The notes under the pieces were generated by a model that saw nothing but the letters and a program-made list of their open reading frames with translations, was not told the DNA's origin and made no database searches. 64,000 nt of DNA from Gammaproteobacteria bacterium (GTDB lineage Bacteria; Pseudomonadota; Gammaproteobacteria; SZUA-229), in the NCBI GenBank assembly GCA_029882215.1, contig JAOULC010000004.1, positions 61,701 to 125,700 on the forward strand, given 5' to 3'. Position numbers and translations under genes: made by a program. The first letter of the stretch is position 1. Each line of letters begins with the position of its first letter. Positions 33,304-56,629 of the stretch are shown here, piece after piece.

Positions 33304-33454
33304 TTCCCTTACTATTTACCGGCTTTATACAAGCTCAGACTTGTTGATTTACTGTCTTTAAAAATCGAAAACAGTTATTCAATCTGAAAATAAATACTCC
33401 ACTGATAAGCGATATGAGAAGACTCAAATATACTTATGCAAGCAGGTAATTAAC

Positions 33455-34348: not shown

Positions 34349-34351
34349 TAG

Positions 34352-34927
34352 TTACTTTTTAATAAAAAAATAAATGATAAGCACAACAACGATCATTAAC
34401 CAGCCAATCCATTCAATATACTTCTTAATGGTCGGCTCCATCTTTGGCCCTGCCCAGGCCATTAATAAAGCAACCATAAAGAAGTGCGCACTGCGCCCAA
34501 GTAATGCGGCCAGAATAAATGGCAGCAGCGCCATGTTTAACGCACCGGCTGAGAGTGTAAATAGTTTAAAGGGTATAGGTGAAAAACCGGCGATGATAAC
34601 AGCCCAAAAACCCCATTCAGTAAACCAGGCAACAGCGGTATGATACTTATCAATATAGCCCACAGTCACCAGCAAGGGCTCAACCATGTCCATAGCAAAT
34701 GCGCCTATAAAATACCCCAGCACACCACCCCCTACAGATGTCAGGGTAGCAATAATAGCCAGTCGAACCGCCCGATCAGGTTTAGCCATTGCCATGGGTG
34801 CCAGCATCATTGCGGTTGGCACAGGGAAAAAGATCGACTCAATAAAGCTGACAAATGCCAGGTATCGCTCTGCATGCCTGTGGGCTGCCCACTGCATCGT
34901 TGTATTGTAGAGGCCTTGAAAAATCAT
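34352..34927 (-). CDS. YqaA-like (DedA-superfamily) inner membrane protein
   Basis: 191 aa polytopic membrane protein with ESIFFPVP motif region resembling YqaA. Confidence 0.6.
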   Translation of the reverse strand: MIFQGLYNTTMQWAAHRHAERYLAFVSFIESIFFPVPTAMMLAPMAMAKPDRAVRLAIIATLTSVGGGVLGYFIGAFAMDMVEPLLVTVGYIDKYHTAVAWFTEWGFWAVIIAGFSPIPFKLFTLSAGALNMALLPFILAALLGRSAHFFMVALLMAWAGPKMEPTIKKYIEWIGWLMIVVVLIIYFFIKK

Positions 34928-35605
34928 TTATCGCTTAGCTCCGTCTAACATCGGTACAAAGAAAACATCTTCATGTTTATTACGAATAAACTCATCACCT
35001 TGTCTTTTAATAATAAGTAAACTTTGGTTACTTTCCTGCGAACCCACCGGTATCACCAGAACACCACCGTCAGCTAACTGCGCCAGCAACGCGGCAGGCA
35101 CCTCAGCAGGTGCGGCAGTGACGATGATCGCGGGGTACTGTGCATATTCTTCCCAGCCCCAGCTACCGTCGGTATGTTTTAGACTAATATTATTATAATC
35201 TAACTGACTAAAGCGAACTCTGGCCTGATCGGTCAATGCCGCTACCCGCTCAACTGAATAAACCTGTTTGACTAAATGCGATAAAACAGCGGCCTGATAA
35301 CCTGAGCCTGTACCGACCTCAAGTACTTTATCCGGAATCCCTGCAGACAGTAATAGCTCGGTCATTCTGGCAACAATATAAGGCTGGGAAATCGTAACAC
35401 CATGACCGATAGGTAAAGATGAATCCTCATAGGCCCGGTGTGATAGCGCCTCATCTAAAAACAGGTGGCGTGGTGTCGTACGCATCACTTCCAGCACCGT
35501 TTCGTTGCTGATTCCCTTTTCTTTTAGCCGTTCGATTAAACGGTTACGGGTGCGCTGCGAGGTCATACCTATGCCTTCGACGGCCGCCTTCGAGGTTTTT
35601 AACAT
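34928..35605 (-). CDS. pcm: Protein-L-isoaspartate O-methyltransferase
   Basis: SAM-MTase motifs ([13 protein letters not shown]), [19 protein letters not shown] as in E. coli Pcm; start may be internal Met (MTSQRT). Confidence 0.9.
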
Positions 35606-36348
35606 AGCTCAAGCCAGCTGGCTAAATCTTGCATACTGTCATAACGAGTCAAGTCAATTTGTAACGGTGTCACCGAAATATAACCTGAACGAACCGCATT
35701 AAAATCGGTGCCTTCGCCCGCATCCTGTTCAGGCCCCGGCGGCCCCACCCAATAAATATCAATACCACGGGGATCTTTATCAACAATGACATCTTCTGCT
35801 TTATGTCGGTTACCTAAGCGTGTGGCCTTAAAGCCTTTTATTTCATCCCAGGGTAAATCAGGAACATTCACATTAAGAATAGTATCGTGGTTCAAAGGGT
35901 TCTTTTGTAATGATTCGACCAGTTTAACCACCGCGATACCGGCAGACTCAAAATATTGCGGATTAAAAGCTCCCATTGAAACAGCAATCGCCGGTAATCC
36001 CAGAAAGCGCCCTTCGGTGGCAGCAGCCACCGTGCCGGAATAAAGCACATCATCACCCATATTTGGGCCGTCATTAATTCCCGAGATAACCATATCCGGT
36101 TGTTTATCTCTTAGCAGGCCGGTAATCGCCAGATGCACACAGTCGCTGGGGGTGCCATCAACAGATTTAAAGCCATTCGGGTTATTGGTAACACGCAAAG
36201 GCCGAGTTAATGTCAGAGAATGACTGGAGGCGCTACGGTTTCGATCGGGTGCGACAACCACTACATCTGCCACTTTTTCAAGTGCATGCGCCAGAGCATG
36301 GATTCCCGGCGCTAAATAACCATCATCGTTACTGATTAAAATTTGCAC
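35599..36348 (-). CDS. surE: 5'/3'-nucleotidase SurE (start assigned to GTG; ORF-track ATG at 36453 would overlap divergent smrB)
   Basis: Conserved SurE N-terminus [11 protein letters not shown] begins at GTG 36348 giving ~250 aa typical length; longer ORF adds 35 non-conserved residues. Confidence 0.75.
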
Positions 36349-36433
36349 AATATTATTATTCGACCTGCTAAAAACTCTATAGTAATGTATTGAGGTCTTA
36401 ACATCACCCATATTTTTATTATTAGCGGCCCAA

Positions 36434-36970
36434 ATGACAACAAAAAAAACCAAAGATAATAATGACTTGCAGCTCTTTCATGAGGAAATGCAGGATGTAA
36501 GACCACTGATCAATGATCGCGTCACACACGCGCCCAAAAAAAAGCCTTTAAATAAGCGGCCATCTGCCGAATCTGCCCAGGCCGTTAGCGAAAATATATT
36601 CTCAACCAGCAACGTCACCGACTGTGACGTCATCCTAAGATTTGAACGCCCGGGCTTACAAAAGCCGTTATTAAAAACATTCCGGCAGGGCAAAATGCCC
36701 ATAGAAGCCTCGCTTGATTTACATGGCTACACCAGTGAGCAGGCACGCACGGCAATGATAGAATTTATGCGCTTAGTCCAGAGAGAACAATTAAGAGTTG
36801 TCTGCATTGTGCATGGAAAAGGTTTTGGCTCGAACAGTAAGCAGCCGGTTATTAAGCCTCTGATCAACAAGTGGCTACAAGAATTGAATGAAGTGCTCGC
36901 GTTTAGTTCAGCCCAGCCCAAAGATGGCGGCACAGGTGCCGTTTATGTCTTACTCAGAAAAGACAAGTAA
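36434..36970 (+). CDS. smrB: Smr-domain ribosome rescue endonuclease SmrB-like
   Basis: 178 aa; C-terminal Smr domain ([11 protein letters not shown]...VVCIVHGKG). Confidence 0.75.
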
Positions 36971-38847: not shown

Positions 38848-39350
38848 ATGGCTACTAAACTTCCCAGCTGGTTCAGATACAGTTTATCCGTTTTATTACT
38901 ACTGGCTGCCAGCAATTACTGTTTAGCATATAAAGATGTCATACCCCGTTACGCACTGATCATCGGTAATGCCGACTATCAATTCTCGCCATTAAAAAAC
39001 CCGCTCAATGATGCCAACGATATCGCAGGCACTTTAAAATTACTGAGGTATCAGGTGACTCTGGGCTTTGATCAGAAACCGGAGCAATTAAGAAACACAG
39101 TAGATAGCTTTTACAGTAGAATCAAAGAGAATAAAGCGGTCAGTTTGTTTATTATGCCGGTCATGCCATTCAGGCTGATAACGTGAACTATTTAATACCG
39201 GTTAACGCTGGCATCAGTAGTTTTGATCTGTTAAGAACACGTGCATTTTCTACCAATCAATTACTGCAGTCACTCAAAAAATCAGCCAGCAAACAAAACA
39301 TCATTATTCTCGACGTCTGCAGAAACGGCACCTATACGTCATATTTCTAA
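38848..39350 (+). pseudogene. Secreted caspase-like (peptidase C14) gene disrupted by -1 frameshift at a T-run (~39148..39151) and C-terminally decayed
   Basis: Signal peptide + YALIIGNADY... in frame 1 to 39186; frame 2 continues VYYAGHAIQ...ILDVCRN (catalytic His/Cys dyad) to stop at 39350; further frame-switching caspase-like debris to ~39430. Confidence 0.65.
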
Positions 39351-39977
39351 ATCAGAAACAGCAGAAGCCTTATTTAAGAAAATACGCAGAGATGTACTGG
39401 CCGCCACAAATAACCGGCAAACACCGTGAGAACATTCCTCACTGATCGAAACCTTTTACGTTACCCCCCGGCAAATGAAGAAACCCCGGATGTCATCAGC
39501 TTTTAGAAGATACTGATAACACCGAGCAGCAACATCGTTGAACGTTCACTGATATTTTTAAACTCAATTTGTCCGTAACCATATTGTTTAACGACTGAAC
39601 GTAAAGTGATTGAGTGCACACTGTATTAGTAATTAATAATATTATGTTTTATAAATAAATTAGAGTAAATAAAATTGTGCCTTTTTTAAAGCACTGCTAA
39701 GGCCAGCGCTATCTCTATGTAATTACTTGAAAAACATGTGCAATATCAATGAGAGAAAATATATTTTTTTTATAAAAGTATTCTATACTCTTGATAACCT
39801 AGGAAATCTATCAAGAATTATGCTGATTTTTTCTAGGACAGAGAATAATTACAGAAAAAAGAAACGGCGTGATCTTAATTTTTCAGATATTTACAACAGT
39901 CCTAATCTTTATTCAAAAATTATCGATGATTTATATAGTGTATTTGATCACATTAGATTTAAGTACAAGGAGCAGAT

Positions 39978-40940
39978 ATGAGCAGCAAGCATTGTGATTC
40001 TTCGGTGAGACTCAACCTAAGCATGACTTTTTCGATTTTATTTTTTCTTATGGTTCTTGTGTCTATAACGGCATGTGATCAATCCTCGCAGTCGCAGTCC
40101 TCACAAACTCCTCAGTATGGTGACAGTTCGACTCTGGATAGCAAACCTGTCTATCGTTTCGCCATTCACCCACTGCATAATCCTCGTAAGTTAACAGAGG
40201 TCTATCAACCGCTCATTAACCAGCTTAACGCGAAAATTCCCAGCGTGCACTTCCAGGTTGAAGCATCTCGTGATTACCAGGCTTATGAAATGAAATTTCG
40301 CGCCCGTGAAGCGGAATTTTTATTACCTAACCCGTGGCAAACGCTTGAGGCCATAAAAGTAGGCTATTCCGTCATTGCCATGGCCGGTAACGCCGAAGAT
40401 TTTAAAGGCATTTTCGTTGTACGCAATGATAGTGGTATCAAAGTACCGACTGACCTAAAAGGTAAAAAGGTGAGTTGTCCTTCTCCCACCGCACTGGCAG
40501 CCTGTATTATGCCACATCAATATTTACACAATCATGGCGTGAACGTGCAAGCCGATATCGAAAAGTTGTATGTTGGTTCTCAGGAGTCATCCATAATGAA
40601 TACTGCTTTGGGCAGTGTTGCCGCTGGTGCAACCTGGCCACCTCCATGGCGTGCCTTTCAAAAAGACCACCCGGAAGATGCCGCCAAGCTTAAGGTGATA
40701 TGGGAAACACCGCATCTGCTCAATAACTCGGTAATGGTGCGTAAAGATGTACCTGCAAATATACGCGATCAGGTTAAACAGATACTCCACGATTTACATA
40801 AAACCCCTGCAGGTCAGGAGCTTCTAAACGGAATGGAAACAGCACGTTTTCATCCGGCGGATGACGGAACCTATGACAAGGTTCGTCAGTTCGTTGCACG
40901 TTTTGAAAAAGAAGTTCGACCAGTAGAGGTTAAAAAATAA
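39978..40940 (+). CDS. PhnD-like periplasmic lipoprotein (substrate-binding, predicted ligand-sensing partner of downstream kinase)
   Basis: 320 aa; lipobox ITAC; strong PhnD-family pattern (YRFAIHP, SCPSPTALAACIMP, LKVIWETP); stop overlaps kinase start (ATAATGG). Confidence 0.8.
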   Translation: MSSKHCDSSVRLNLSMTFSILFFLMVLVSITACDQSSQSQSSQTPQYGDSSTLDSKPVYRFAIHPLHNPRKLTEVYQPLINQLNAKIPSVHFQVEASRDYQAYEMKFRAREAEFLLPNPWQTLEAIKVGYSVIAMAGNAEDFKGIFVVRNDSGIKVPTDLKGKKVSCPSPTALAACIMPHQYLHNHGVNVQADIEKLYVGSQESSIMNTALGSVAAGATWPPPWRAFQKDHPEDAAKLKVIWETPHLLNNSVMVRKDVPANIRDQVKQILHDLHKTPAGQELLNGMETARFHPADDGTYDKVRQFVARFEKEVRPVEVKK

Positions 40941-43900
40941 TGGGAAAAGCGTTAACGTATTTTTTTTCTGGAAACCTGCGTCGTCGATTGTTGTTTAGTG
41001 TAGCCGCAATACACGCTGTGATGATGAGTGTTTTTATCTGGGATCTGACAGAGCGCCAGCAGGATATGATCCTCAGCCAGCAGACCCGGTTAGCGACGGC
41101 CCTGGCGCAAAGTGTTGCAACTTCTACCGCTATTTGGTTGCAGGCACGCGACGTTGCCGGACTACAGGAAATTATAGAATCCCAAAAACGATATCCAGAA
41201 TTGAGTTTTGGTATGGTCGTTACGGCTGATGGCGAAATTCTCGCGCATACGGATCAATCACTTCGAGGTCGTTACTTAACTGACCTGCCTGCAAGGCCAG
41301 AGCAACATCTCTTTCGTCAGGATGAGAGCCTGGTCGATGTCGCTACGCCTGCACTGGTTGCAGGACAACATGTCGGATGGGTGCGCATTGGTGTCGGCAA
41401 AGGCGTCACCCATAGCGAATTAGCCGCGCTCACGCGTGACGGCGTGTTCTATACCTTGTTTGCGATACTGGTTGGTTCGTTACTGGCCGCTTTACTGGCC
41501 CGACAAATGACACGTCGACTCAATATTATTCAGTCGACAGCAGACGCTGTGCAGGCCGGGGAGTCAGGGAGGCGCGCGAATGTAGCCGGTGATGACGAGG
41601 CAGCTATTCTTGCTCGCCAATTTAATCGCATGCTGGATACGCTGGAAGAACGCGAGCAAGAGCTGGAACAACATCGAAGCCATCTTGAGGAAACAGTCGC
41701 TGAACGTACCACAGACCTGGCAAGTAAAAATAAACTGTTCGAATCCATCAGTAGGATGCAGGCACAATTTATTCGTGAGCAGGACCCGCAGGAATTGTTC
41801 AGTTGCATCGTACAGGAGTTTGCCGCACTGACTGATAGTGAAATGGGCTTTGTCGGTGATATTCATCGCCACGAGGATGGATATAACTACCTGAAAGATT
41901 ATTCCTTCTTTAACGTACCTCAGGATGAAGCGTCGCAGCATTTTTATGAAAAACACAAAGCCACCGGCTTTATGTTCCGGCAGGATCAGCACCCCAACTT
42001 GTTTAACCAGGTCATTACGGATCGCACAGTGATTATTGCCAATGCGCCGGCGCGCGGCTCACACTCTACCGGTCTTCCTGATGGTCATCCGCCGTTACAA
42101 AATTTCCTTGGTATCCCCGTCTTTTATGGCGAACGCCTTGTGGGTGAGATCGGCCTGGCCAATCGAACAGGTGGCTACAACCGGGCTGTGGTTGATATGC
42201 TCAAACCGGTAATTGATGCCTGTGGTCGTATCATCGTCGCTCGTTGGGATCAATCGGCACGTGAGGAAGCTGAAGCGGCAGCCATCGAAGCACAGAAAAC
42301 GGCCGAGTCGGCAAATGAAGCGAAGAGCATGTTCCTGGCGAATATGAGCCATGAATTACGTACCCCACTTAATGCCATTCTTGGCATGTTGTATTTAGCG
42401 CTACGCAATGATTTGCCGGATGCGCTACGTAACCAGTTAAGTAAGGCGCGGTCATCTGCACACTCCTTATTAAGTATCATCAATGACATTCTTGATCTCT
42501 CCAAGATTGAAGCTGGCAAGCTTGAGATCGAAAAAATCGAGTTTGGTCTTGATGGTGTGTTGGAGCGCGTGACGGATATTGTCGCGGGGCAGGCGGCGGA
42601 CAAAAATATCGAGTTCCTGATTCGCTATGATAACGAGATACCGTGCACCCTGGTTGGTGACCCACTTCGACTGGGGCAGGTGTTAATCAATCTTTGTGGT
42701 AATGCGGTAAAGTTCACCGAAGTAGGCCAGGTAGAATTATCCTTTCATGCAGATGAAGTTACCGATACTACGCTCACCGCACGCATTTGTGTCATGGATA
42801 GTGGTCTTGGAATGTCCACTGATTTACAAGCACAGCTATTTGAAAAATTTGTTCAGGCAGATCAAAGTAGTACTCGTCGCTTCGGTGGCACCGGACTCGG
42901 ACTGGCAATTTCCAGGATGCTGGTGGAGATGATGGGCGGTCGTATCTGGGTTGAACATTCTGAACCCGGATCGGGAACCACGTTCTGTCTGTCCCTGCCG
43001 CTGGGTATTGCCTCTCAAGCACGGCGGAGTCATCGTGAAGATGTAGTAAAACGAGTCGGACACATGCTCAAGGGTAAGCGTGTACTGGTGGTGGACGATA
43101 ATGAAGTGTCGCTCGAAATATTAGCGGAAATGATGCGTGATTTTCAGTTTGAAGTTGATGTTGAGCCTAGCGGCGCAGCAGCACTGGCTAGAGTAGAAAT
43201 CGCTGGAGATGGTTATTATGATGTGGTGTTGACCGACTGGTCCATGCCGGGTATGAATGGCGATGAGGTCGTTCGCAAACTGCGCCGAAATGCAACGATG
43301 ACCTCGCTTCCCAAATTCATTATCGTTACCGCTTACGGGCGCGAAGACGTGCTCGAGGATGCTGAACGAGCTGGTGCGGACGGTTTTCTGGTTAAGCCCG
43401 TTTCACCTTCGGCACTGCTCGATACGACACTTGAGGTGTTGGGTCGTGAACGATTATGGGACACCACGTCAGAACCTGTTAGTTTACGAAAAACCAGTAA
43501 AGGATATAACTTTTCAGGGATGCGTTTACTGCTAGTAGAAGATAATGAAATCAACCGCGAGTTTGCAGGCATATTGTTACGCAGCGAGGATATTGAAGTC
43601 GATGAGGCAATCAATGGCCTTGAAGCCATCAGCCGTGTACAGGAAAAGACATATGATGGTGTACTGATGGACGTGCAGATGCCGGTAATGGATGGTTTAG
43701 AAGCGACACGCCAGATTCGTGCACTGGCTAACAACCCCGGACAAGAATACTTTGCCAGTTTACCTATTATCGCCATGACAGCACTCGCCATGGAGAAAGA
43801 TATCGAGAGAACCCGTGATGCAGGAATGAATGATCATGTCACTAAGCCTGTTGAGCCAGAGCAGTTAATGGCGACTCTTGCCAAATGGGTTAAACACAAA

Positions 43901-44545
43901 GAACAGAAAAGAAGTATTTCACAGACTTTTGAGCCACCAGAGGATATGAAAGCGCTAATTAATCTCGATGTAAAAGGTGGTATTCATCGCATTGGCGGTA
44001 ATGCTAATGCCTATCGGAAACAATTGAAACGCTTCAGCAAAAACTATGCTGATTGCACCACGGAATTGCAACGTTTTATTGATAAAGAAGGCACGCAGCA
44101 GGCCGAGGGTTACTGCCATGCACTTAAAGGTGTTACCGGTAATATTGGGGCAAAAAAGCTTCATGAAAAAGTAACAGAGCTTGATGATTTACTCAAACAG
44201 AATCAGATTCCAGAGAAGACAGCCTTAAATGAAATGGAGGTTTTACTACAAGCTGTACTCAGTGATATTGAAAGTTTATTAGAAACCTCAGATACCTCAA
44301 TGTCAGTCGACTGTGAGCCTCTGAAGGCGATAGAATTACATAACCTTCTGCAGAAATTACTAAATGCTCTGGAAACCGATCTGGGAGCTGTCGAAACATT
44401 AGTTATTAAGCTTCAGCACGGCCTGACTGACAGCGACCAAAAGGCCGCAATAGAAGCAATAGCGCGTCAGATTGACTGCTTTGACACAGATACCGCTATT
44501 GATTTAATTAACCAATTTCAGTCTGAATTAAACATTACAAATTAA
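40940..44545 (+). CDS. Hybrid sensor histidine kinase: TM - small periplasmic domain - TM - HAMP - GAF - HisKA - HATPase_c - REC - REC - Hpt
   Basis: 1201 aa; [16 protein letters not shown]-box; [18 protein letters not shown]; two receiver domains ([13 protein letters not shown]; [12 protein letters not shown]); C-terminal Hpt ([12 protein letters not shown]). Confidence 0.9.
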
Positions 44546-44553
44546 GGTTTTTT

Positions 44554-47406
44554 ATGTCCGAGTTTACTCAGTATAGGCCCAATGTTCTTATTGTTGACGA
44601 TGTGCCGGAAAATCTACATACGTTGATGAATGTGTTGCGCGATAAATATGTCATCACGGCAGCCACTAGTGGTACGAAGGCGTTGGAAATCGCACGACGC
44701 GTACCACATCCGGACTTAATTCTGCTGGATATAAAAATGCCTGATATGGATGGATATACTGTACTGGATCATCTAAGGAGTGATCCATCTACATCCGAAA
44801 TCCCGGTTGTATTTATCACTTCAATGGGCGACAACGACGACATCGGGCGCGGGCTACGATTGGGTGTTGTCGATTATATCGTTAAACCGGTGGACCCTGA
44901 AATGTTACTTCTCAGGGTGCGCACCCAGCTTGAATTACAGAGTGCACAGAAACAGCCTAGCTCACGCGGCCTGTTCAAAAATTTTGATTCTGGTGAAAAG
45001 CCTACATTATTACTTGTCGATGATGTACCTGAAAACTTGCATGAATTAGTAGAGGCCTTAAAAGCTGATTACCAGATTCGGGTGGCTTCCAATGGTGCTA
45101 AAGCGCTGGAACTGGTTCAAGGAAATACACCACCGGATTTAATATTACTCGATGTAGTTATGCCTGGTATGGATGGTTATGAAGTATGTCGTCGTGTTAA
45201 AGAAACGCCGATGGGATATTCCATTCCGATTATCTTTGTAACGGTAGCCGATGAAGTTGAACAAAAAGTAAGTGGATTTCGTATAGGAGCTGCTGATTAC
45301 ATTACAAAGCCCTACGATATCGATGAAGTTCGTGCGCGTGTTCGAACTCATCTTGAACTGGCCCGACTGCGTTTTTTTCTGGAGAGTCTGGTTGCACAAC
45401 GCACGGAGCAGTTGCGTAGTAGCGAAGAAAAGTACCGTACTATTGCAGAGTTCACTTATGACTGGGAATACTGGATTTCCCCAACGGGTAAACTACGCCA
45501 TGTCTCACCTTCCTGTGAGCGGGTCACTGGCTATAAAGCACAGGAATTCATCGAAGATAATGACCTGATGTTAAAAATTGTACATCCAGATGATCAAAGC
45601 ACTATGCAAACATGTTTTAGCAAAATAGAACCGGGTAATGTGCTAGCTACAGGGGTCGAGTTCCGTGTCATCACTAAATCCAAAGAGCTCCGCTGGTTAG
45701 AAAATAGATCTCAGCCTGTCGACAATGCAGAAGGTGCTTTTTTGGGACTTCGTGGCAGTGTTCGTGATATTACAGAACGCAAGCTCTCAGAAATTGCGCT
45801 GCGTGAAAGCGAGAATCGTTTGCATGACATCACAGAAAATGTCGACGCCTATATTTTCCTCAAAGATCTCGACGGTAAATACCAGTTTGCGAATCGGGCA
45901 CTGCGTGATTTGTGGGGCGCCGAATCATCTGAGATCATCGGTTATGGAGACGAAAAGTTTTTCGACTCAGATACTGTTGCTCAGATACAGCAAGTCGATC
46001 AAGATGTATTAGAACAAGGTGTAACCTTACGTTTTGAAGAGACAAACCGCTTTTCCAAAAATGGAAAAGAAGCTACATTTCTTACTACGAAGATGCCTCT
46101 ACGACACGAAGATGGCAGTATCTACGCGCTATGCGGCCTTGCTACTGATATCTCCGAGCGTAAGCGCCTGGAAGAAGAGCTGGAAGAGCGTGTCAAACAG
46201 CGCACGGCTGAGCTTCAACAGGCTAATGCCGATCTTAGCAGAGCACGCGATGCTGCTGAAGCGGCGACACAAGCAAAAAGTGCATTCCTGGCCAATATGA
46301 GTCATGAAATTCGTACGCCTCTTACTGCAATTACTGGCACAGCCTATTTAATTCGTCGTTCTGGTGTTAACCCGAGGCAGGAGGAGCAACTGGATGTGAT
46401 TGACAGTGCCAGTCAGCATCTGTTGGAGACAATCAATTCTGTCCTGGATATTTCAAAGATTGAAGCAGGTAAACTGGAAATTGACAAGAAACAGGTCGAT
46501 ATTGAAATCATTATAAACAATGTAGTATCTATTCTTTCAGCGTCGGCTGATAAAAAAGGACTTAAGTTATATGTTGAGCCTGTTCCAGAAAATCTACAGC
46601 TCATTGGTGATGTAACCAGACTACAGCAGGCGTTGATGAATTTTGTAAGTAATGCCGTGAAGTTCACGGCATCAGGTACTGTCACTGTGCGTACCATTCT
46701 CGAGAAGGATGCAGAATCTGATGTATTATTGTGCTTTGAGGTTGAAGATACAGGAATCGGTATAGCTGCTGATGTTGCTGAGCGTTTGTTCAATTCTTTC
46801 GAGCAGGCGGATAACTCCATGACTCGTAAATTTGGTGGAACAGGTCTTGGTCTTGCAATAACAAGAAAGCTTGCTAAATTAATGGGGGGGGATGCGGGTG
46901 TTATTAGTACACTTGATGTAGGCAGCACATTCTGGTTTACAGCTAAGCTCAAAAAAGGAGAGTTCATTGTTGATGATTCGGATAATGAAAAGATTAAATC
47001 TGCTGATGTGATTCTGGAACGTGATTATCGCGGTGTTCGTATTTTATTAGCAGACGATGAACCCATGAATCGTTCGCTTATACAGGACATTTTGTCCGGG
47101 AGTGAGCCCGTTTTTGATATGGCAGAAAACGGTGCTATTGCAATTGAACTGGTGCGAAATAATCAATATGATCTGATTTTTATGGACATGCAGATGCCGG
47201 AAATTAATGGATTAGAAGCAACTGAGATCATTCGCTCGCTGCCAAACGGTGCTAATACACCTATCATTGCGTTGACCGGAAACGCTTTTTCAGAAGACAG
47301 ATCACGTTGTTATGATGCCGGTATGAATGATTTTCTTACCAAACCGTTTAATATTCCTCAGTTGTTTGAAATAACATTAAAATGGCTATTAACTTCAGGA
47401 AAGTGA
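44554..47406 (+). CDS. Hybrid histidine kinase/response regulator: REC - REC - PAS - PAS - HisKA - HATPase_c - REC
   Basis: 950 aa; two N-terminal receivers ([13 protein letters not shown]; [13 protein letters not shown]), PAS repeats, H-box [33 protein letters not shown]-terminal receiver ([13 protein letters not shown]). Confidence 0.9.
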
Positions 47407-47649: not shown

Positions 47650-47990
47650 TTCGCCTTTTTTGTGGACAGCCAGATACTCACAAGAAGCCGGGGCATTCAG
47701 CGAGTCATGCGGGGTTTCTTCTTTGTATTCTCTGATCCGGTTTTCGTTAGCTCTCTGACTTCATTCAGGATTTTAAATACATAACTGTTCGGAATATCAT
47801 CACAGTATGTTCGGTTAAAGCGCTGAGCAAAAATCAAACAGGACACACTGAACCTCCCCCCCCGGTTTAACGGACACTTTTAATCAGAGACTAAAGTCTC
47901 TGTGTTAGGGCACATTTTTTGGGTGACGTTTCTTATGTGAGTAAGAAAGGTCACTCGCTGTTGCCCGGCTACCGATGTCTTTGACATAGG
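47650..47990 (-). mobile_element. Possible degraded transposase/IS remnant (two short ORF fragments) in AT-rich spacer
   Basis: Minus-strand fragments MSKTSVAGQQRVTFLTHIRNVTQKMCPNTETLVSD* and ...NRIREYKEETPHDSLNAPASCEYLAV...; the latter resembles the conserved C-terminal end of DDE (rve) transposases (…Y.YNEERPHS.LGY.TP.EY); no intact IRs seen. Confidence 0.3.
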
Positions 47991-48111: not shown

Positions 48112-50079
48112 CTAACTCAAGCGCTGCTGATCCGTCAGCCAGTAAAAATGATACGGTGGTATCACCAGCTGATCTTTAAATAATGCCGGTTTATCACCGG
48201 ACACCAGGTCACTGATATGGCCGTGTGATAACACCGCTTTTATATAAGGATTATTCAGATCAAGGTATTGCGGGTTTGCATCAAAGTTAACCACCACTAA
48301 TACCCCGCCTGCCGAACGGGTCAGGTTAAAGCGCGAATAAACAAACAGGTGTGGGTTATCCACGTGGATTAATTCACGGTTGTTAAAATCTGCAAACGCA
48401 GGTATGCCCTTTCGTACCGCGATCATTTTTTTAATGGCATTAAATATATGGTGTTGCGTCGTGCCGGACTGATGCCTGAGCTCTGCTTTATCCCAGTCGA
48501 AATCCGGGCGGTGAGCCCAGCGGGTATCATGAGCTTTGTTTTCATCATTTAGAAAGTTACAATCGTTTAGCGTTCCCAGTTCATCTCCGTAATACAGCAA
48601 GGGGATTCCGCCGAATGACAGGATCAGACTGTGCAGCAACAGTATATGCTGCATAGCATTATTTATTCGGTCTGGGTTTTCTGATTCCAGCGCTGTTTCC
48701 AGACCAACCAGAGATGCCAGCGAGCCTGAAATGCGTGCATCACCGGTTTTAAGATTATGGCCAAAAGGAAAACCTCTGGCATCCGAGTCACTGAAATTAC
48801 CGGTGTAGTAGTCGATGAGAAATTTGCGGTGATTGACCGGTTCATAGTTCACTGCGCGAATATCGGTATCATCAAAACCCAGTCCAATATCATCGTGGCA
48901 GCGCACATAGTTTAACCAGGTTGCCCGCTCCAGTTTATCCGGCAGACTTCTCAGCCCCTGATAAAGTAGTCTGGCATTTTTGGTGGCCACAGCATCCCAC
49001 AGCAGAGCCATTAAGGTGGCATTGTAGGCTATTTCACATTCCTTAGCATTGATCGCGTCTTCACCAAAATATTTAATGATTTCCACCGGTGCCACAATGG
49101 CTTCTGCAATAAACAGCACACCCGGTGCTGTAACCTGACAGCAGTCTTTCATTAACTGTAATATCAGGTGAGCTTCACGTTCATTCTGGCAGGCACTGCC
49201 GATTTTTTTCCATAAGAACGCCACGGCATCCAGGCGGATAATATCTGCGCCCTGATTAGCCCAGAACAAAATAATGTCGAGCATTTCAATGAATACGGCC
49301 GGATTACTGTAATTAAGATCCCACTGGTAATCATTAAATACCGTCATCACCCATTTATTCATTTCTGCATCCCAGGTGAAATTACCGGGAGCTGTTTCCG
49401 GGAATATTTCCGGCATGGTCTCTTCAAACATGTCGGGGATTTCACGATTATCAAACAGGTAGTAATAATCCTGGTATTTTTTTTCACCAAGGCGCGCACG
49501 CTTTGCCCAGTCATGCTCATTGGATGTGTGGTTAACCACAACATCCATGGTCAGTAAAATATCACGCTTCTTCAGTGACTCACTCAGTTCGTGTAAATCA
49601 TCATTCGTGCCGATGCGCTCATCTACCCGGCGGAAATCACTGATTGCATAGCCACCGTCACTTTTACCTTCAGGGCACTGAAGTATGGGCATGATATGAA
49701 TCATATTCACACCCAGCTCCTGAAAATAAGAAAGCCTTTCGTTAAGCCCTGATAAGTTATTTGCAAAACCGTCTGTATATAAGGCCATGCCTACCCATTT
49801 CTGGCTGAGAAACCAGTTATGGTCTTTTTCACGCTCTATGTCCTTTGTTTTAAGTTTTTTAGAGCGCTCCATATACTGCTTGGCCATGGTTTCAACCAGG
49901 CGCAGGGCTTGTTCTTCAAAATCATCACGATCGCCATATAACAGATGAAACAAAGAATAAATGGCGTAGAAGTTTGCACCGAGACGGGTATAAAAATGCC
50001 GTAATTCATGTTTCTTTATTTCCGGCTTTAACTTGATCAGTATTTCATTAAGTAAAGAATGTGAGACCTGTTCGTACAT
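48112..50079 (-). CDS. ams: Amylosucrase (GH13 sucrose glucosyltransferase)
   Basis: 655 aa; colinear with Neisseria amylosucrase (PYFQELG, CPEGKSDGGYA, NHTSNEHDWA, WDLNYSNP, IRLDAVAFLWK, GDELGTLND). Confidence 0.85.
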   Translation of the reverse strand: MYEQVSHSLLNEILIKLKPEIKKHELRHFYTRLGANFYAIYSLFHLLYGDRDDFEEQALRLVETMAKQYMERSKKLKTKDIEREKDHNWFLSQKWVGMALYTDGFANNLSGLNERLSYFQELGVNMIHIMPILQCPEGKSDGGYAISDFRRVDERIGTNDDLHELSESLKKRDILLTMDVVVNHTSNEHDWAKRARLGEKKYQDYYYLFDNREIPDMFEETMPEIFPETAPGNFTWDAEMNKWVMTVFNDYQWDLNYSNPAVFIEMLDIILFWANQGADIIRLDAVAFLWKKIGSACQNEREAHLILQLMKDCCQVTAPGVLFIAEAIVAPVEIIKYFGEDAINAKECEIAYNATLMALLWDAVATKNARLLYQGLRSLPDKLERATWLNYVRCHDDIGLGFDDTDIRAVNYEPVNHRKFLIDYYTGNFSDSDARGFPFGHNLKTGDARISGSLASLVGLETALESENPDRINNAMQHILLLHSLILSFGGIPLLYYGDELGTLNDCNFLNDENKAHDTRWAHRPDFDWDKAELRHQSGTTQHHIFNAIKKMIAVRKGIPAFADFNNRELIHVDNPHLFVYSRFNLTRSAGGVLVVVNFDANPQYLDLNNPYIKAVLSHGHISDLVSGDKPALFKDQLVIPPYHFYWLTDQQRLS

Positions 50080-50146
50080 TGTAATTTACATCGTAATTAT
50101 ATTGGTGCTTGCAGACAGATTAAATAAACTGACTCACCACCAACTA

Positions 50147-51028
50147 TTACAAGCTCCAGTTTTCAATAAAAGGGGTGTAAAAATTTTTATCCAGTGTAGT
50201 TGCTCCATGCAACCCGACCACAGCACTGGCGAATTGCTGAGCCCGTTTTATTGTATCGTTTAATGACCAGTCGTTATGCAAGCCTAATAATAGTACGCTG
50301 CTAAATGCATCACCGGCGCCAACGGTATCAATAACATTAATCGTTTTTTCCGGCTGAACCGATAGCAGATCATTTTCACTGATAACAACTGCACCGGCAG
50401 AACCTTTTGTTACGATTATCAAATTAAGGGCATACTGTGATAATAAAAAGCGCGCTCTGGATTCGCTGTCTTTTTCATCGGGAACCAGCTGCAACAGTTC
50501 TTCATCATTTATTTTTAACCAGTTCGCCCCCTTTATAACAGCGTTTATCAGCGACAAGTTCCACCATGGCGGGCGCAGATTAACATCAACAAAAACAGAC
50601 TCGGAACACCTGTTTTTTACCTCAGCAAGGCAGTTTGCCGAAACCGCTTTTCTCAATGCCAGCGAGCCATGATACAACATACTGTAATCATCAATCTCCA
50701 GTAGCTGACGTGAATTAATAAAATCCCAGGCACTGTTTTCAATAATATTGTAAGCAGGATTACCCTGATCAAAATTAACCGTCACCACCCCGGTTGGATG
50801 AACGGTATCAACCTGCAAGCCATCCGTATCCATACCCCAGTTGAGCATGGCTGATTGTATCTCAGCCCCCATTGCATCATCTCCAATGCGCGAGATCAGT
50901 AATGGGTTTAAGCCAAATGCCTGAGTGTGCCAGGCAACATTAAACGGGGCGCCGCCTAATACACGTGAATCATCAGGAAAACAGTCAAATAAAACCTCAC
51001 CAAAGATAACCAGCCGTGAATCACTCAT
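50147..51028 (-). CDS. Fructokinase (PfkB-family carbohydrate kinase)
   Basis: 293 aa; N-terminal GG motif, C-terminal DTVGAGDAF anion-hole motif; 4-nt overlap with upstream spp. Confidence 0.85.
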   Translation of the reverse strand: MSDSRLVIFGEVLFDCFPDDSRVLGGAPFNVAWHTQAFGLNPLLISRIGDDAMGAEIQSAMLNWGMDTDGLQVDTVHPTGVVTVNFDQGNPAYNIIENSAWDFINSRQLLEIDDYSMLYHGSLALRKAVSANCLAEVKNRCSESVFVDVNLRPPWWNLSLINAVIKGANWLKINDEELLQLVPDEKDSESRARFLLSQYALNLIIVTKGSAGAVVISENDLLSVQPEKTINVIDTVGAGDAFSSVLLLGLHNDWSLNDTIKRAQQFASAVVGLHGATTLDKNFYTPFIENWSL

Positions 51029-51909
51029 GCAGCACCCTGTAACCAGTCTTTAAAATGTGGCAGATAGTGAATAACACCTTCCACTATACCGGCGCTGTAA
51101 TTTCCATTCATATCCATGAAGTTTCCCTGTGCAAGATACAGCTGCCCTTGCAGATTATTTGCCTGTGCTGCCTTTAATACTTGCTGACGAACTTCAGTGT
51201 CAGCATTAGCAACCAGCACCGACTGTACAGGGCTGCTCAGCACGCAGACATCATTACCACTGTCACCGGCGAACACAGTTTCTGTGTATTCGTAATCAAG
51301 TTTTTTCATTAAATATTCAATCGCCTGACGTTTACCCGCACTGGCCGGCAGAATATCGAGCAGCCCGGTGTTAATTAACTCATCAATACTCCAGATAATA
51401 TTAGCTGCAATACCCTGTTGCTGCAGGCGCAGATTTATTTTTTTTATAACTGACTGATGATCTGTATTTAATGCCACGTAGTAACTGAACTTATGAATAT
51501 TTTGTTTACTGGCCTCCTGAAGCTTTATCTCACTAATATCAAGTAGACTGTCGTGTAGTTCAGCTGCAGTTTGCTGCTGCCAGTCGTCACTTATCTTTTT
51601 CTCCCAGTCTGTCATTGACTGCCAGCCAGTACTGTTAAGCTGATAGATTGATGAACCCACATCCGCAATCACAAAATCTGCCTGTGGCAGGTCATACTCC
51701 TCTATCGCCTGCTCGACCAGTTGCCGATGGCGTCCTGTCACATAGGCCAGTATGATATCGGGATGTGCCGTCAGTTTTTTAAAATATTCTCTGGCATGAT
51801 CCGATTCTGGCTGAGGCCCGTTAGGTATTAATGTGCGGTCAAGGTCTGTACACAGTAATAAACGCGTCGCTTTTGTTGCTTCATTATTTTCGGCTAACGG
51901 TTTATTCAT
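51025..51909 (-). CDS. spp: Sucrose-phosphate phosphatase (HAD-IIB)
   Basis: HAD motif I LLCTDLDRTLI, motif IV GDSGNDV; start assigned to MNKPLAEN (ORF-track ATG 51939 would overlap sps by 37 nt). Confidence 0.75.
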   Translation of the reverse strand: MNKPLAENNEATKATRLLLCTDLDRTLIPNGPQPESDHAREYFKKLTAHPDIILAYVTGRHRQLVEQAIEEYDLPQADFVIADVGSSIYQLNSTGWQSMTDWEKKISDDWQQQTAAELHDSLLDISEIKLQEASKQNIHKFSYYVALNTDHQSVIKKINLRLQQQGIAANIIWSIDELINTGLLDILPASAGKRQAIEYLMKKLDYEYTETVFAGDSGNDVCVLSSPVQSVLVANADTEVRQQVLKAAQANNLQGQLYLAQGNFMDMNGNYSAGIVEGVIHYLPHFKDWLQGAA

Positions 51910-54076
51910 CGGGCACCCGGCAGCTGTCAAAAAAATCATAATGCTCTATGGCTTCGAGGATGCCGGCAGCGTAAGGATATTTAGAATAAAAAACACTATC
52001 GAGTTCGAGTAACTCAGTCAGTTCTTCGTTATGACGGTTAGCCACTATCACGGCCAGTGTATTGCCTCTGATCATGTCTTCGTCCGCCCCCGAACCACCT
52101 GCAACCAGAATATGATCGAGCGGAATATCCCATTGCTCGGCATACCAGCGTAACGCCAGACCTTTTGATGCCCTGACCGGAACAATATCCAGAAACTGTC
52201 CGAAAGAAAGCACACTGTTCACCGTTTGCTCGTGACGCAGTAAAAGCTTTCTGATCTCATCTATAGAGGGCGCTTTTTCAGCGTCATAGTAGTAACTTAT
52301 TTTATAGCGACTTTGTTCGCTTTTATGTTGCAGACTAAGTCCCGGCATATCTTTCAAAAGCGCACGTACTTTACTAGGTCGCCATAAATAATCGATATGA
52401 TCATCCCAGGCAGTATCCCGGGTCAGATTTTGTCCGTAATAAATTTCAGTCCCCAGACTGGTAACCAGTGCATCGGGTAACGGAATTTTATTGGCTTTGA
52501 TCAGTTTTAAGGCGGAGTCCAGACGTCGTCCGGTTGCGATACCAAAACTACTGCAGCGCGCATTATCTTTTATTATCTGACTAAAGGCCGGTATATCAGC
52601 AGGCTCACCCAGTAAACTCTGATCCAGATCAGAAAAAATAGCACGATTGCGGTAAAGCCGGGAGCGACGCTGCAGCTTCATACGCACAACCGCTTCTGTT
52701 TTATCAATCACCGGTTTGATTACTTTCAGATAACTTTCAGCATGGCCCTTCCATGAATAATAATTATTCACGCCCTGAATACCACTGCCGGCCATTTTTT
52801 CCCACTGCTTTTTATCACTCAATGCAAGTAGCAGCTGCTGAATAATTTGTTGATGATCTAAGGGATCGATCAGATATCCATTTTTACAATTGGAGATGAT
52901 ATCAACAGGACCGCCATCTTCAGTTGCAATGATTGGTAAGCCACAGGCAGCCGCTTCTATTAAAGTCAGGCCAAACGGTTCAGTCAGCGCCGGATTAATA
53001 AACACGCCGCCTGATAATGCTGCCAGCCGGTAAATCACCGAAATATCAGTGGCTAAATGGTGCTTTGGGTATGCGACTTTACCATAAAGATCATACTGAT
53101 CAATGCTTAGCAGCAGGCTGGTCAGCACTTCCTGTGCGCCCGCTTCGAGGTCACGAATATCATCACGGTTACCGGCAATAATCACCAGATTAGCAAGCTG
53201 TTGTAAATCCTCAGACTGACCATAGGCTTCTATCAGCGTGACGATATTTTTTCTCTGATCCGGTCGTGAAATTGCCAGTATCATAGGCTTGTCAGGATTA
53301 ATCAGAAAGCGGTCAATTTGACGGGATATTTCACTTTGTTTTTCAGATCTGTCCGGCGGATGAAACTGTGTCAGGTCTGTACCCGGTGGCACCACGCGCA
53401 TTTTATTTGGCTGATAGAAATCATATAATTCGTATTGCTCTTCAATCTCCTGATTGGTGCTGGTTACTATTCTGTCAGCAACACCCAGTGTAACTTCTTC
53501 TGCTTCTATCCTGCGTGACATACAGTAACGTTTTTCTATCTCGGCACTTTTTACTCCGCTTGCAAGTAATCTTTGTCGCTTACTGCGACCCAGTGAATGA
53601 CCGGTATGTACCAGCGGCACGCTTAACTGATGAGATAAAAGTGTGCCGACATAGCCTGCATCGGCATAATGACTGTGAATAACATCCGGCGTCAGATCAT
53701 GCTGATGTAAATAAGCTAAAAGATTATCTGAGAAAATATCAAGGTGATCCCAAAGCTGTTCTTTGGGTAAGTAAAGCTGATCTGCACAGTCAATTCGTAC
53801 AATACTGACTTTATCACTCAGCTTTTCAGTATGCCGGGCATAATCAGAACTGACTGTTTTATCGACCAGACGACGTGTTACCAGATCGACCCGTGCAACC
53901 TCTGGCTGCTCACCAAGCGCACGAGCCAGTTCAATAACATACTTGGTCTGACCACCTGTGTCAGCATCGCAACCCAGTTCCAGATCATGACCACGGATAA
54001 GACCATGAATACTGATAAGCAGAAAATGAAGACCGTCTTGTTTTTTCCGGTTATTTTTTTTTATGACTAATGACAC
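51902..54076 (-). CDS. sps: Sucrose-phosphate synthase (GT4 glycosyltransferase + C-terminal SPP-like HAD domain)
   Basis: 724 aa; N-terminal GT-B with HGLIRGHDLELGCDADTGGQTKYV typical of SPS, E..GLP..AT..GGP motif, C-terminal HAD-like domain. Confidence 0.85.
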   Translation of the reverse strand: MSLVIKKNNRKKQDGLHFLLISIHGLIRGHDLELGCDADTGGQTKYVIELARALGEQPEVARVDLVTRRLVDKTVSSDYARHTEKLSDKVSIVRIDCADQLYLPKEQLWDHLDIFSDNLLAYLHQHDLTPDVIHSHYADAGYVGTLLSHQLSVPLVHTGHSLGRSKRQRLLASGVKSAEIEKRYCMSRRIEAEEVTLGVADRIVTSTNQEIEEQYELYDFYQPNKMRVVPPGTDLTQFHPPDRSEKQSEISRQIDRFLINPDKPMILAISRPDQRKNIVTLIEAYGQSEDLQQLANLVIIAGNRDDIRDLEAGAQEVLTSLLLSIDQYDLYGKVAYPKHHLATDISVIYRLAALSGGVFINPALTEPFGLTLIEAAACGLPIIATEDGGPVDIISNCKNGYLIDPLDHQQIIQQLLLALSDKKQWEKMAGSGIQGVNNYYSWKGHAESYLKVIKPVIDKTEAVVRMKLQRRSRLYRNRAIFSDLDQSLLGEPADIPAFSQIIKDNARCSSFGIATGRRLDSALKLIKANKIPLPDALVTSLGTEIYYGQNLTRDTAWDDHIDYLWRPSKVRALLKDMPGLSLQHKSEQSRYKISYYYDAEKAPSIDEIRKLLLRHEQTVNSVLSFGQFLDIVPVRASKGLALRWYAEQWDIPLDHILVAGGSGADEDMIRGNTLAVIVANRHNEELTELLELDSVFYSKYPYAAGILEAIEHYDFFDSCRVPDE

Positions 54077-54130
54077 TACTCAATAATCCCTTGTAAGAAA
54101 AACAATAAATCAGGCAATCGGTACAAATTA

Positions 54131-54162
54131 TTAAAAAAAGCTCTGATATCTTCGACTCAGAG
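54131..54162 (-). terminator. Rho-independent terminator of glgP (stem includes stop codon)
   Basis: Minus strand CTCTGA-GTCGAAGATA-TCAGAG followed by CTTTTTTT. Confidence 0.7.
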
Positions 54163-56625: not shown

Positions 56626-56629
56626 ATGA

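Follow-up and report, generated by a model that had tools for sequence, protein, structure and literature searches.

A probably resident three-gene operon encodes a PhnD-fold lipoprotein and two hybrid histidine kinases in an uncultured gammaproteobacterium

Three genes on the plus strand of the 64,000-nucleotide stretch of DNA that we analyzed (the window) probably form a resident signalling operon of an uncultured gammaproteobacterium. The analysis shows their anatomy, their intact phosphorylation sites, the conservation of the gene pair and of the trio, the altered binding pocket of the first product and an ordinary base composition. The open reading frames encode a PhnD-fold lipoprotein (SBP; 39978..40940, 320 aa), a membrane hybrid histidine kinase with an Hpt domain (K1; 40940..44545, 1201 aa) and a soluble REC-REC-PAS-PAS-HK-REC hybrid kinase (K2; 44554..47406, 950 aa). 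On balance, we favour the explanation that SBP would dock on the sCache_3_2 domain of K1 and that the Hpt of K1 would feed K2; within it, we infer the docking, the transfer between the kinases, the class of the ligand and the output. The tight packing of the three genes in the original prediction was borne out at both junctions: the last A of the SBP stop codon (TAA, 40938-40940) is the first base of the K1 ATG (AATAATGGG), giving a 1-nt overlap, and the K1 stop codon TAA is followed by the 8 nt GGTTTTTT and then by the K2 ATG. All domains described below lie on the same strand.

SBP matches the PF12974 (Phosphonate-bd) model along its full length (model positions 1-242 of 242, aa 61-299; E = 4.6e-50, 170.7 bits, with the cut-off at 27) and has a lipobox, I-T-A-C33, whose Cys (Cys33, nt 40074-40076) was invariant in 25 of 25 homologues. 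With its AF2 model (pLDDT 84.2), the top Foldseek matches were ArrX, PhnD, PtxB, AioX and XAC2383, and the target-normalised TM scores of 0.72-0.87 against ArrX, PhnD and PtxB indicate a bilobed PhnD-like fold. The PhnD/PtxB/HtxB group has a conserved STS-H ligand-binding motif and a capping Tyr, and the ligand residues of Pm_PhnD are S126, T127, S128, H158 and D205, with Y206 as the cap (PMC5700983). In the alignment, S126/T127/S128/H158/D205/Y206 of 5LQ5 correspond to A172/L173/A174/Q202/N249/N250 of SBP. Each of these six SBP residues is the same in 74-75 of 75 homologue genomes, and the sole ligand-pocket residue of Pm_PhnD to be retained is Y46, as Y100. Assignment of SBP to the PhnD/PtxB/HtxB type of transport protein was rejected on these grounds, as STS-H is replaced by an invariant A-L-A...Q and the capping Tyr is also gone. 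The replacement suggests that the ligand is probably neither phosphonate nor phosphite. SBP may belong to a large branch of the PhnD superfamily: at least 189 clusters (50% identity) match at E <= 1e-30, and in the core members STS-H has given way to an invariant T-A-L-A-A / S-Q-E-S / N-N pocket.

At least 576 species-level genomes gave a match, and we surveyed the gene neighbourhoods of the closest 80, with loci chosen by SBP similarity. A gene encoding a TM-sCache_3_2-TM-HAMP protein lay directly downstream of SBP in 75 of the 80 loci, across several phyla, and two of the five loci without this pairing were contig ends. The aligned regions of the two genes were separated by a median of 18 nt, in most loci the stop and start codons overlapped by 1 or 4 nt, and the sensor modules were 40-59% identical over 250 aa. 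The part of K1 that is found next to SBP in other genomes is the TM-sCache_3_2-TM input part, while the outputs differ: all 61 complete partners had sCache_3_2, and HisKA plus HATPase was found in 46, REC in 36, GGDEF in 11, EAL in 5 and Hpt in 5. The distance matrices of SBP (mean pairwise identity 65% in 75 genomes from several phyla) and of the sensor module were correlated (r = 0.63; Mantel, 0 of 2000 permutations), and the kinase core correlated with either of them at only 0.46-0.50. SBP and its TM-sCache_3_2-TM-HAMP sensor form a conserved two-gene input cassette with variable output. Among the carriers are oxidisers of sulfur, iron and methane, relatives of Geobacter, Desulfobulbales, and MAGs placed in Nitrospirae and Kiritimatiellales; the genes that recur nearby encode single REC proteins, REC-HD-GYP proteins, GGDEF-EAL proteins and NarL-type regulators.

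The pairing, the translational coupling, the correlated divergence and the lack of transporter genes uphold the predicted role of the lipoprotein as the ligand-binding partner of K1. SBP is most likely a pure ligand receptor that would dock on the periplasmic sCache_3_2 domain of K1, with no transporter partner. It could instead be a transport protein for a phosphorus or sulfur oxyanion, with its ABC importer encoded elsewhere and its place beside a kinase gene reflecting co-regulation or a PstS/PhoR-like coupling, in which case the K1 Cache domain would bind its ligand directly, in the manner of CitA and DcuS. This fits the NCBI name of the protein (phosphate/phosphite/phosphonate ABC transporter substrate-binding protein), its membership of PF12974 and its TIGR01098 score of 100.7 bits, near the cut-off of 112; moreover, K1 could sense by itself, because the sCache_3_2 domains of CitA and DcuS, which are direct carboxylate sensors, bind their ligands directly (PMC4822843). 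However, SBP falls under the cut-offs of all NCBIfam transporter models (77 against 261 for TIGR03431 PhnD), and STS-H is gone from every member of the family. In addition, permease and ATPase genes are absent within +/-10 kb of the trio and do not recur among the neighbours in the 80 loci, the SBP stop overlaps the sensor start in most of them, and SBP co-varies with the sensor module. We consider a transport function very improbable.

The input module of K1 (40985..41512) consists of two transmembrane segments recognized by hydropathy (TM1, aa 16-36; TM2, aa 167-191) and, between them, sCache_3_2 (aa 40-164; 8.4e-12, 45.8 bits against a cut-off of 28.4), so that the periplasmic loop of ~130 aa that had been predicted is present and is a named Cache domain. 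A search for solved structures close to this domain found none (best E = 0.15). The module is followed by HAMP (aa 185-237; 41492..41650; Pfam) and by GAF_2 (aa 281-432; 41780..42235; 1.5e-12), a lineage-specific insertion that occurs in 3 of 61 relatives. The kinase core (42320..43006) comprises HisKA (aa 461-526, His471) and HATPase_c (aa 573-689), and downstream of it lie a divergent, extra receiver (receiver 1; aa 713-834, Asp766; 43076..43441), a receiver of the class found in the hybrid kinases of related loci (receiver 2; aa 861-984, Asp911; 43520..43891) and the Hpt (aa 1031-1106; 44030..44257). Nearly all of the domains originally predicted for the operon were confirmed with Pfam, except that the Hpt, at 22.2 bits, scores below the Pfam cut-off of 24.6; it nonetheless keeps the canonical motif, H1060-A-L-K-G, and can be aligned with LuxU over the phospho-His region (E = 0.15). 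H471, D766, D911 and H1060 are all present, making the HK-REC-Hpt residues complete, with an Hpt that is weak by score, and the phospho-acceptor residues are intact throughout K1 and K2. Neither kinase comes near the NCBIfam cut-offs of BarA, TorS, ArcB, LuxQ, RcsC or EvgS; the top match of K1 is BarA (433 bits, and 479 for K2, against a cut-off of 890).

In K2, which has no transmembrane segment by hydropathy, two tandem N-terminal receivers (aa 9-129, Asp59, and aa 150-270, Asp200; 44578..45363) precede PAS_3 (aa 316-399) and PAS_4 (aa 428-538; together 45499..46167), a kinase core with HisKA (His584) and HATPase_c (46273..46953) and a C-terminal receiver (aa 830-939, Asp878; 47041..47370), with which the protein ends, lacking an Hpt of its own. 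The first two receivers were 41-53% identical to the N-terminal receivers of REC-HD-GYP proteins and REC-first kinases near other cassettes, whereas receiver 2 of K1 and the last receiver of K2 were closest to receivers located behind the kinase core in the hybrid kinases of related loci. By these sequence likenesses, the tandem receivers of K2 are of the terminal-regulator type, which would fit a transfer from the Hpt to K2, and K2 probably receives from K1. This lends plausibility to the multi-tier relay of the original prediction, in which the His-Asp-His relay of K1 feeds K2, with the transfer itself staying a putative step. The wiring may be lineage-specific, because a K2-type protein with N-terminal receivers was nearby in only 11 related loci and an Hpt was present in only 5 of the 61 partners.

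In the favoured explanation, occupancy of the binding site would act through TM2, HAMP and GAF on the kinase core of K1, from which phosphate would pass from His471 to Asp911 and then to His1060 of the Hpt. The Hpt may then phosphorylate Asp59 and/or Asp200 of K2, whose PAS-gated kinase (His584 to Asp878) would add a second layer of decision. The terminal effector is presumably encoded elsewhere; in relatives it would mostly be a c-di-GMP enzyme (REC-HD-GYP, REC-GGDEF or GGDEF-EAL) or a NarL-type regulator. In other bacteria, the cassette has histidine kinases, diguanylate cyclases and phosphodiesterases as its outputs. In agreement with the original prediction, the block contains no DNA-binding regulator.

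A second arrangement, to which we assign a rather low probability, is that the kinases act in parallel, K1 responding to periplasmic signals (SBP/Cache, plus GAF) and K2 to cytoplasmic ones (PAS), and that the one Hpt of K1 is where both converge, with the N-terminal receivers of K2 serving as inputs from another kinase or as phosphate sinks. Since K2 has a receiver (Asp878) as its last domain and lacks an Hpt, it needs a foreign one, and that of K1 is the only Hpt in the operon. Moreover, several partner sensors precede REC-first kinases (L007, L010) although so few of the partners have an Hpt. Convergence of this kind is known from LuxN, LuxQ and CqsS, which converge on LuxU, and from the GacS/RetS/LadS network. 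On the other hand, the tandem receivers of K2 resemble the N-terminal receivers of effector proteins and not those that follow a kinase core, and the tandem is kept together with a K1 that bears an Hpt in each of the three lineages that carry the trio. The parallel and the cascade arrangements are compatible and not mutually exclusive.

The trio was found in two related uncultured gammaproteobacterial lineages with its gene order and overlaps unchanged, with identities of 86% (SBP), 88% (K1) and 85% (K2) in L083 and of 64%, 61% and 64%, respectively, in L085. The trio thus stays together, as the proposed synteny check asked, and is co-inherited within differing neighbourhoods. The housekeeping UvrC showed identities to the relatives of 82-92% and then 67%; the divergence of the trio is comparable, which suggests that it has long resided in the lineage.

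The block had been described as markedly GC-rich, and horizontal acquisition had been proposed. The 1-kb bins at 41-44 kb do have a GC content of 0.48-0.51, compared to a window mean of 0.43, but the excess is limited to the first ~3 kb of K1 and arises because of the first codon positions (GC1 = 0.605). When compared to the 40 other ORFs of the window, the z scores for GC and GC3 were +0.8 and -0.1 for SBP, +1.9 and +0.9 for K1, and +0.1 and -1.1 for K2, and the chi-square deviation in codon usage ranked the three genes 19th, 40th and 32nd, respectively, of 41. Neither GC3 nor codon usage sets any of the three genes apart from the rest of the window.

An import of the trio on a mobile element, with a donor of higher GC content, would accord with several features of the flanks. 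The predicted upstream pseudogene is real, consisting of two fragments of a frameshifted caspase-domain gene (Peptidase_C14, Pfam; 38848..39430, plus strand) that cover model positions 2-67 and 74-133 in different frames, and AT-rich spacers (GC 0.355 and 0.38) flank the trio. The downstream transposase-like fragments could be substantiated only as a weak candidate for a decayed integrase-core remnant (rve_3; 47697..47846, minus strand; E = 0.01, 16 bits), for which NCBIfam gave nothing; both flanking elements lie outside the system. In the sister lineage L083, the nucleotide homology (86.7%) is confined to 40062-47385, with different flanks and an intact rve transposase 0.7 kb downstream, and the SBP family crosses phyla (Nitrospirae/Victivallales 78%, Zeta-/Gammaproteobacteria 81%). 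However, besides the ordinary GC3 and codon usage and the divergence that parallels UvrC, there is no tRNA in the 64-kb window, no intact integrase beside the trio and no significant terminal repeat, a single 19-nt inverted match being within chance after multiple testing. Furthermore, in L085 the trio occupies a third context in which mobile genes are absent, and, beyond the lineages that carry the trio, the most similar SBP is only ~67% identical. The differing flanks in L083 and L085 are accounted for equally well by rearrangement in an IS-rich genome as by acquisition. The reading of the trio as a recent, GC-rich import is not supported, and we regard delivery by a mobile element as improbable.

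The pair of SBP and sensor occurs widely and belongs to a known type, with XAC2383-XAC2382 and AioX-AioS as its closest precedents, so that the "unusual" partner of the original prediction is not unusual. In Xanthomonas citri, XAC2383 is reportedly a ligand sensor that modulates XAC2382 and prefers phosphate-containing anions, and homologous pairs are said to occur in many phyla with varied cytoplasmic outputs. Both systems have a PF12974 binding protein co-transcribed with a TM-Cache-TM membrane protein (here with the 1-nt overlap), and XAC2383 (structures 5UB3-5UB7) matches the SBP model with a Foldseek E of 3.5e-17 and a TM of 0.74. The kinship in sequence is remote (profile E = 8e-5, 15% identity) and no nearer than that to PhnD. 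Unlike XAC2383, SBP is a lipoprotein of a subfamily without the STS-H motif, and the output is HisKA-HATPase-REC-REC-Hpt plus K2, not a diguanylate cyclase. In TorT-TorS and LuxP-LuxQ, a periplasmic binding protein likewise controls a membrane hybrid kinase with a His-Asp-His relay, TorS having its own Hpt, but the families of the binding proteins and sensor domains are unrelated to those seen here, and K1 remains far below the NCBIfam cut-offs of TorS (405 against 676.5) and LuxQ (343 against 1200). K1 shares the TM-periplasmic domain-TM-HAMP-HK-REC-Hpt layout of BarA/GacS-type kinases but, with the BarA score given above, is not an orthologue of BarA, and it has an extra GAF, an extra receiver and a dedicated binding protein. 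The cassette of relatives adjoins REC-HD-GYP proteins, as RpfC lies beside RpfG.

In the arsenic-sensing modules AioX-AioS-AioR, ArxXSR and ArrXSR (PMC5908839), a PhnD-family binding protein serves in sensing alone and adjoins a sensor kinase with a ligand-binding domain that is listed as sCache-like (PMC8050422, Table 1). Among structures, ArrX matches the SBP model best (6x8w, E = 1e-21, TM 0.82), although the profile match to ArrX reaches only 1e-9 and AioX fails at 1e-3. Their kinase architecture is unlike that of K1, and membership of these systems was rejected, as the locus has neither a response regulator beside the trio nor any arsenic-metabolism or Mo-enzyme genes. In TtrS/ThsS, the PF12974 module is the periplasmic input of the histidine kinase itself (PMC5408782), being fused to the kinase in place of a Cache domain, whereas here a separate lipoprotein accompanies a Cache domain; SBP matches the TtrS model weakly, at 35 bits.

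For the window, these findings serve mostly as a correction: the operon has an ordinary composition and is probably not a fresh acquisition. More tentatively, and with the odds against it, the SBP branch and its dedicated sCache_3_2 partner might be a phylum-spanning receptor for a signal other than phosphate or phosphonate, serving mostly c-di-GMP and here driving a cascade in which one kinase activates another (H-D-H, D/D, H-D). Few receptors made of a binding protein and a sensor have been characterised. The present one is abundant, with at least 576 species-level genomes, and unusually conserved. SBP is annotated everywhere as a component of a phosphonate transporter, which its pocket residues and gene context contradict. 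The identity of the ligand would correct this widespread mis-annotation and would expose the environmental cue by which many bacteria of redox gradients set their c-di-GMP or phosphorelay outputs.

The three genes were recovered on the forward strand exactly where the original prediction had placed them, and encode in turn the PhnD-like binding lipoprotein (SBP; 39978-40940, 320 aa), the membrane hybrid kinase K1 (40940-44545, 1201 aa) and the soluble hybrid kinase K2 (44554-47406, 950 aa). Both junctions also read as claimed: in the ATAATGG overlap, the last base of the SBP TAA stop codon is the first base of the K1 ATG, while K1 and K2 are separated by an 8-nt spacer, GGTTTTTT. Pfam supported nearly all of the predicted domains. 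SBP matched the Phosphonate-bd family (PF12974, 4.6e-50), K1 contains sCache_3_2 (aa 40-164), HAMP, GAF_2, HisKA, HATPase_c, two receivers (REC) and an Hpt domain, and K2 consists of REC, REC, PAS_3, PAS_4, HisKA, HATPase_c and REC, with no membrane segment found by hydropathy. The K1 Hpt domain was sub-threshold, scoring 22.2 bits against the Pfam threshold of 24.6; its H1060-A-L-K-G motif is present and aligns on the phospho-His region of LuxU, and the alignments of the BarA and LetS NCBIfam models to K1 run through this domain. The 130-aa periplasmic loop that had been proposed can be refined to a recognised sCache_3_2 domain, a single Cache of the CitA/DcuS type (PMC4822843), flanked by hydrophobic segments (16-36 and 167-191). 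All phospho-acceptors are intact in K1 (H471, D766, D911 and H1060) and in K2 (D59, D200, H584 and D878). The ~95 residues that follow the K1 Hpt domain (aa 1107-1201; 44258-44545) matched no family, and this tail has the same length in the orthologue at locus L083 of another genome, which is also 1201 aa long.

The trio had been described as a horizontally acquired island with markedly higher GC, and the 1-kb bins at 41-44 kb do reach 0.48-0.51, compared with 0.43 for the window. However, when each gene was compared with the 40 other ORFs, GC3 and codon usage proved ordinary: the z scores for GC and GC3 were +0.8 and -0.1 for SBP, +1.9 and +0.9 for K1, and +0.1 and -1.1 for K2. The GC excess of K1 was confined to first codon positions (GC1 = 0.605), and thus reflects amino-acid composition, while in synonymous-codon deviation (chi-square) SBP, K1 and K2 ranked 19th, 40th and 32nd of 41 genes. 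A compositional island was therefore rejected, since the trio is not separable by per-gene GC, GC3 or codon chi-square. Mobile-element boundaries around the trio were likewise rejected: there is no tRNA in the 64-kb window, and the search for direct or inverted repeats gave no significant terminal repeat, and nothing beyond one 19-nt inverted match with 2 mismatches (39474-39492 on the + strand and 47706-47724 on the - strand). This match brackets the trio without extension, both copies encode K-K-P-R-M, and it is within chance, as a region of 9.5 kb offers ~4.5e7 possible pairs of arms.

Immediately before the left copy are the C-terminal residues of the upstream pseudogene, which is real: it is a caspase-domain (Peptidase_C14) gene (38848-39430, + strand) split into at least two frames, and it retains legible catalytic-type motifs (YYAGHA and LDVCRN). 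Transposase-like fragments had been proposed on the downstream side; one of these found weak support from Pfam (rve_3 at E = 0.01), the NCBIfam scan returned nothing, and with this sole support they were not retained. The counts from a promoter and terminator scan equalled the shuffled expectation. Just upstream is the conserved housekeeping cluster surE-pcm-(VTT-domain gene)-nlpD-rpoS (32287-36453, - strand), which places the trio among core genes; the downstream block (48112-58120, - strand) encodes an alpha-amylase-family enzyme, a PfkB-family kinase and, beyond these, more large ORFs.

In two further lineages of uncultured Gammaproteobacteria, represented by loci L083 (SBP 86%, K1 88% and K2 85% identity) and L085 (64%, 61% and 64%), clear orthologues of K1 and K2 were found 3′ of that of SBP. 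At L083, nucleotide homology (86.7%) is limited to 40062-47385 and the flanks are unrelated to those of the window, with MASE11 upstream and an intact rve transposase downstream. L085 provides a third genomic context, without mobile genes; its K1 has one PAS domain more than that of the window, and its K2 again begins with tandem receivers and has three receiver stretches by Pfam. The relatives of UvrC (12624-14447, - strand) are 82-92% identical (~20 related MAGs), with the next step at 67%, and these steps resemble those of the trio. This similarity and the ordinary codon usage indicate long residence and local rearrangement of the trio over recent import. An 88% UvrC lies in the same assembly as L083 at a different coverage (4.9x vs 18x), and is only a possible member of the same genome.

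No output regulator is encoded inside the block, as had been predicted. A UvrY/SirA/GacA-family response regulator (14614-15279, - strand; 270.7 bits, cut-off 280) adjoins uvrC in the classic uvrY-uvrC arrangement, ~25 kb from the trio. The window holds no BarA/GacS-type kinase for this regulator, which is a candidate orphan with no link found to K1. K1 was rejected as the BarA/GacS orthologue serving this regulator (433 against a cut-off of 890). The window also encodes a large hybrid histidine kinase of 957 aa (7305-10178, - strand), which combines a PAS region and kinase core with a receiver at its C-terminus and matched no named equivalog.

Homologues of SBP number ~3,900 in the protein collection, with a flat identity of 56-69%, and are encoded in at least 576 species-representative genomes; they range over Gamma-, Beta-, Zeta- and Deltaproteobacteria and MAGs assigned to Nitrospirae, Kiritimatiellales and Victivallales. 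Cultured carriers of an orthologue include Methylomonas sp. LL1, Azonexus hydrophilus and Trichlorobacter thiogenes. At 75 of the 80 best loci, the same-strand gene directly downstream carries a K1-like input module (the first ~250 residues, TM-sCache_3_2-TM-HAMP; 40-59% identical), and in most of these 75 the predicted SBP stop and partner start overlap by 1 or 4 nt. The exceptions are two contig ends and three Geobacter loci. In these Geobacter MAGs (L042, L050 and L053; SBP at ~10001-10930) no sCache sensor lies behind the SBP orthologue, which closes an operon otherwise made up of PAS-kinase, single REC and REC-HATPase genes, so that one binding protein is wired differently there. At another locus (L054, 10001-10891), the longest ORF matching SBP is 1588 aa and also has PAS, kinase core and REC; it represents a hybrid kinase-SBP fusion or else an artefact of read-through during ORF calling.

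The output of the partner genes is variable. Among the 61 complete ones in the best 80 loci, HisKA+HATPase was found in 46, 36 of these with a receiver, GGDEF in 11 and EAL in 5, while Hpt was present in 5 and GAF_2 in 3. The divergence of SBP correlated with that of the sensor module (r = 0.63; 0/2000 permutations), whereas kinase-core divergence correlated more weakly with either (0.46-0.50). Given the constant sensor module and the stronger SBP-sensor correlation, what is conserved is a two-gene input cassette to which various transmitters have become attached. A wider search with the sensor module of K1 gave at least 13 matches, mostly truncated. The cassette has clearly moved between phyla at deeper levels, with MAG binning errors on short contigs as a caveat; SBP identities are 81% between Zeta- and Gammaproteobacteria and 78% between Nitrospirae and Victivallales.

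No ABC permease or ATPase was found near the trio in the window, and none was recurrent in the 80 loci. When 958 ORFs neighbouring SBP at 84 loci were clustered, only signalling families and an ABC-F protein emerged, the recurrent neighbours being single receivers, REC-HD-GYP, REC-PAS-GGDEF, GGDEF-EAL and NarL-type regulators; inference of the ligand by gene context was abandoned, there being no metabolic or transport partner among these ORFs. In a single genome, Methylomonas sp. LL1 (L086; CP064653, 1-20924), the cassette lies within a large signalling cluster directly 3′ of nif-associated genes (NifB-like, NifQ, ferredoxins and a flavoprotein). Its members are REC-HD-GYP, SBP, the sCache kinase, a PocR-PAS kinase, a Tll0287-like kinase, REC, a REC-first kinase, and a Peripla_BP_6 protein with a dCache kinase.

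The closest architectural precedent for SBP-K1 is XAC2383-XAC2382 of Xanthomonas citri, in which a PF12974 binding protein is reportedly paired with a membrane diguanylate cyclase that has a Cache domain; the study of this pair is said to have already noted homologous pairs with other outputs. The phenotypes of xac2382 and xac2383 are reportedly opposite or epistatic. Structures 5UB3-5UB7 are among the SBP fold matches. AioX-AioS and ArrX-ArrS are histidine-kinase analogues of the pair (PMC5908839), and the AioS domain is listed as sCache-like (PMC8050422). TorT-TorS and LuxP-LuxQ share its logic but are built from unrelated parts, and in TtrS and ThsS a PhnD-like domain is fused into the kinase (PMC5408782). 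The SBP-sensor pairing is real, although it belongs to a kind already known. K1 and K2 scored far under every NCBIfam equivalog cut-off, and are therefore orthologues of no named kinase.

The AF2 model of SBP (pLDDT 84) adopts the PhnD fold, and its best structural matches were ArrX, PhnD, PtxB, AioX and XAC2383. The sequence profile of SBP matched the PhnD, PtxB, HtxB and ArrX structures at only 2e-17 to 1e-8. In Pm_PhnD (5LQ5), phosphite is bound by Y46, S126, T127, S128, H158 and D205, with Y206 as cap and STS-H as the oxyanion motif (PMC5700983). The profile alignment places Y100, A172, L173, A174, Q202, N249 and N250 of SBP at these seven positions, so that only the first Tyr of the ligand set is kept; all seven SBP residues are conserved without change in 74-75 of the 75 genomes. 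Judging by this pocket, the ligand is probably neither phosphonate nor phosphite. An exhaustive search gave 189 clusters (50% identity) at E <= 1e-30, in most of which x-A-L-A-x replaces S-T-S, a signature that fades gradually with distance. The lipobox Cys33 is invariant among homologues and is mostly followed by D, E, Q or N, as would be consistent with a lipoprotein retained at the inner membrane.

The best non-orthologous matches of K2 REC1 and REC2 (41-53%) were only N-terminal receivers of effector proteins near other cassettes, namely REC-HD-GYP proteins (L026 and L086) and REC-first kinases (L007, L010, L032, L041, L057 and L003). K1 REC2 and K2 REC3 are closest to receivers behind the kinase core in hybrid kinases of related loci, and K1 REC1 is a divergent extra receiver. 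These similarities fit a path in which SBP would dock on the K1 Cache domain and phosphate would pass from H471 through D911 to H1060, and from there to D59/D200 of K2, modulating its kinase and then reaching D878; the final output is equally putative. A kinase-to-kinase relay from K1 to K2 is thus plausible. Since a K2-type receiver protein was present at only 11 related loci and Hpt in only 5 of the 61 sensors, the cascade would be a lineage-specific elaboration. The remaining interest of the trio lies in the ligand of a very widespread, mis-annotated SBP branch and in the plausible K1-K2 relay.
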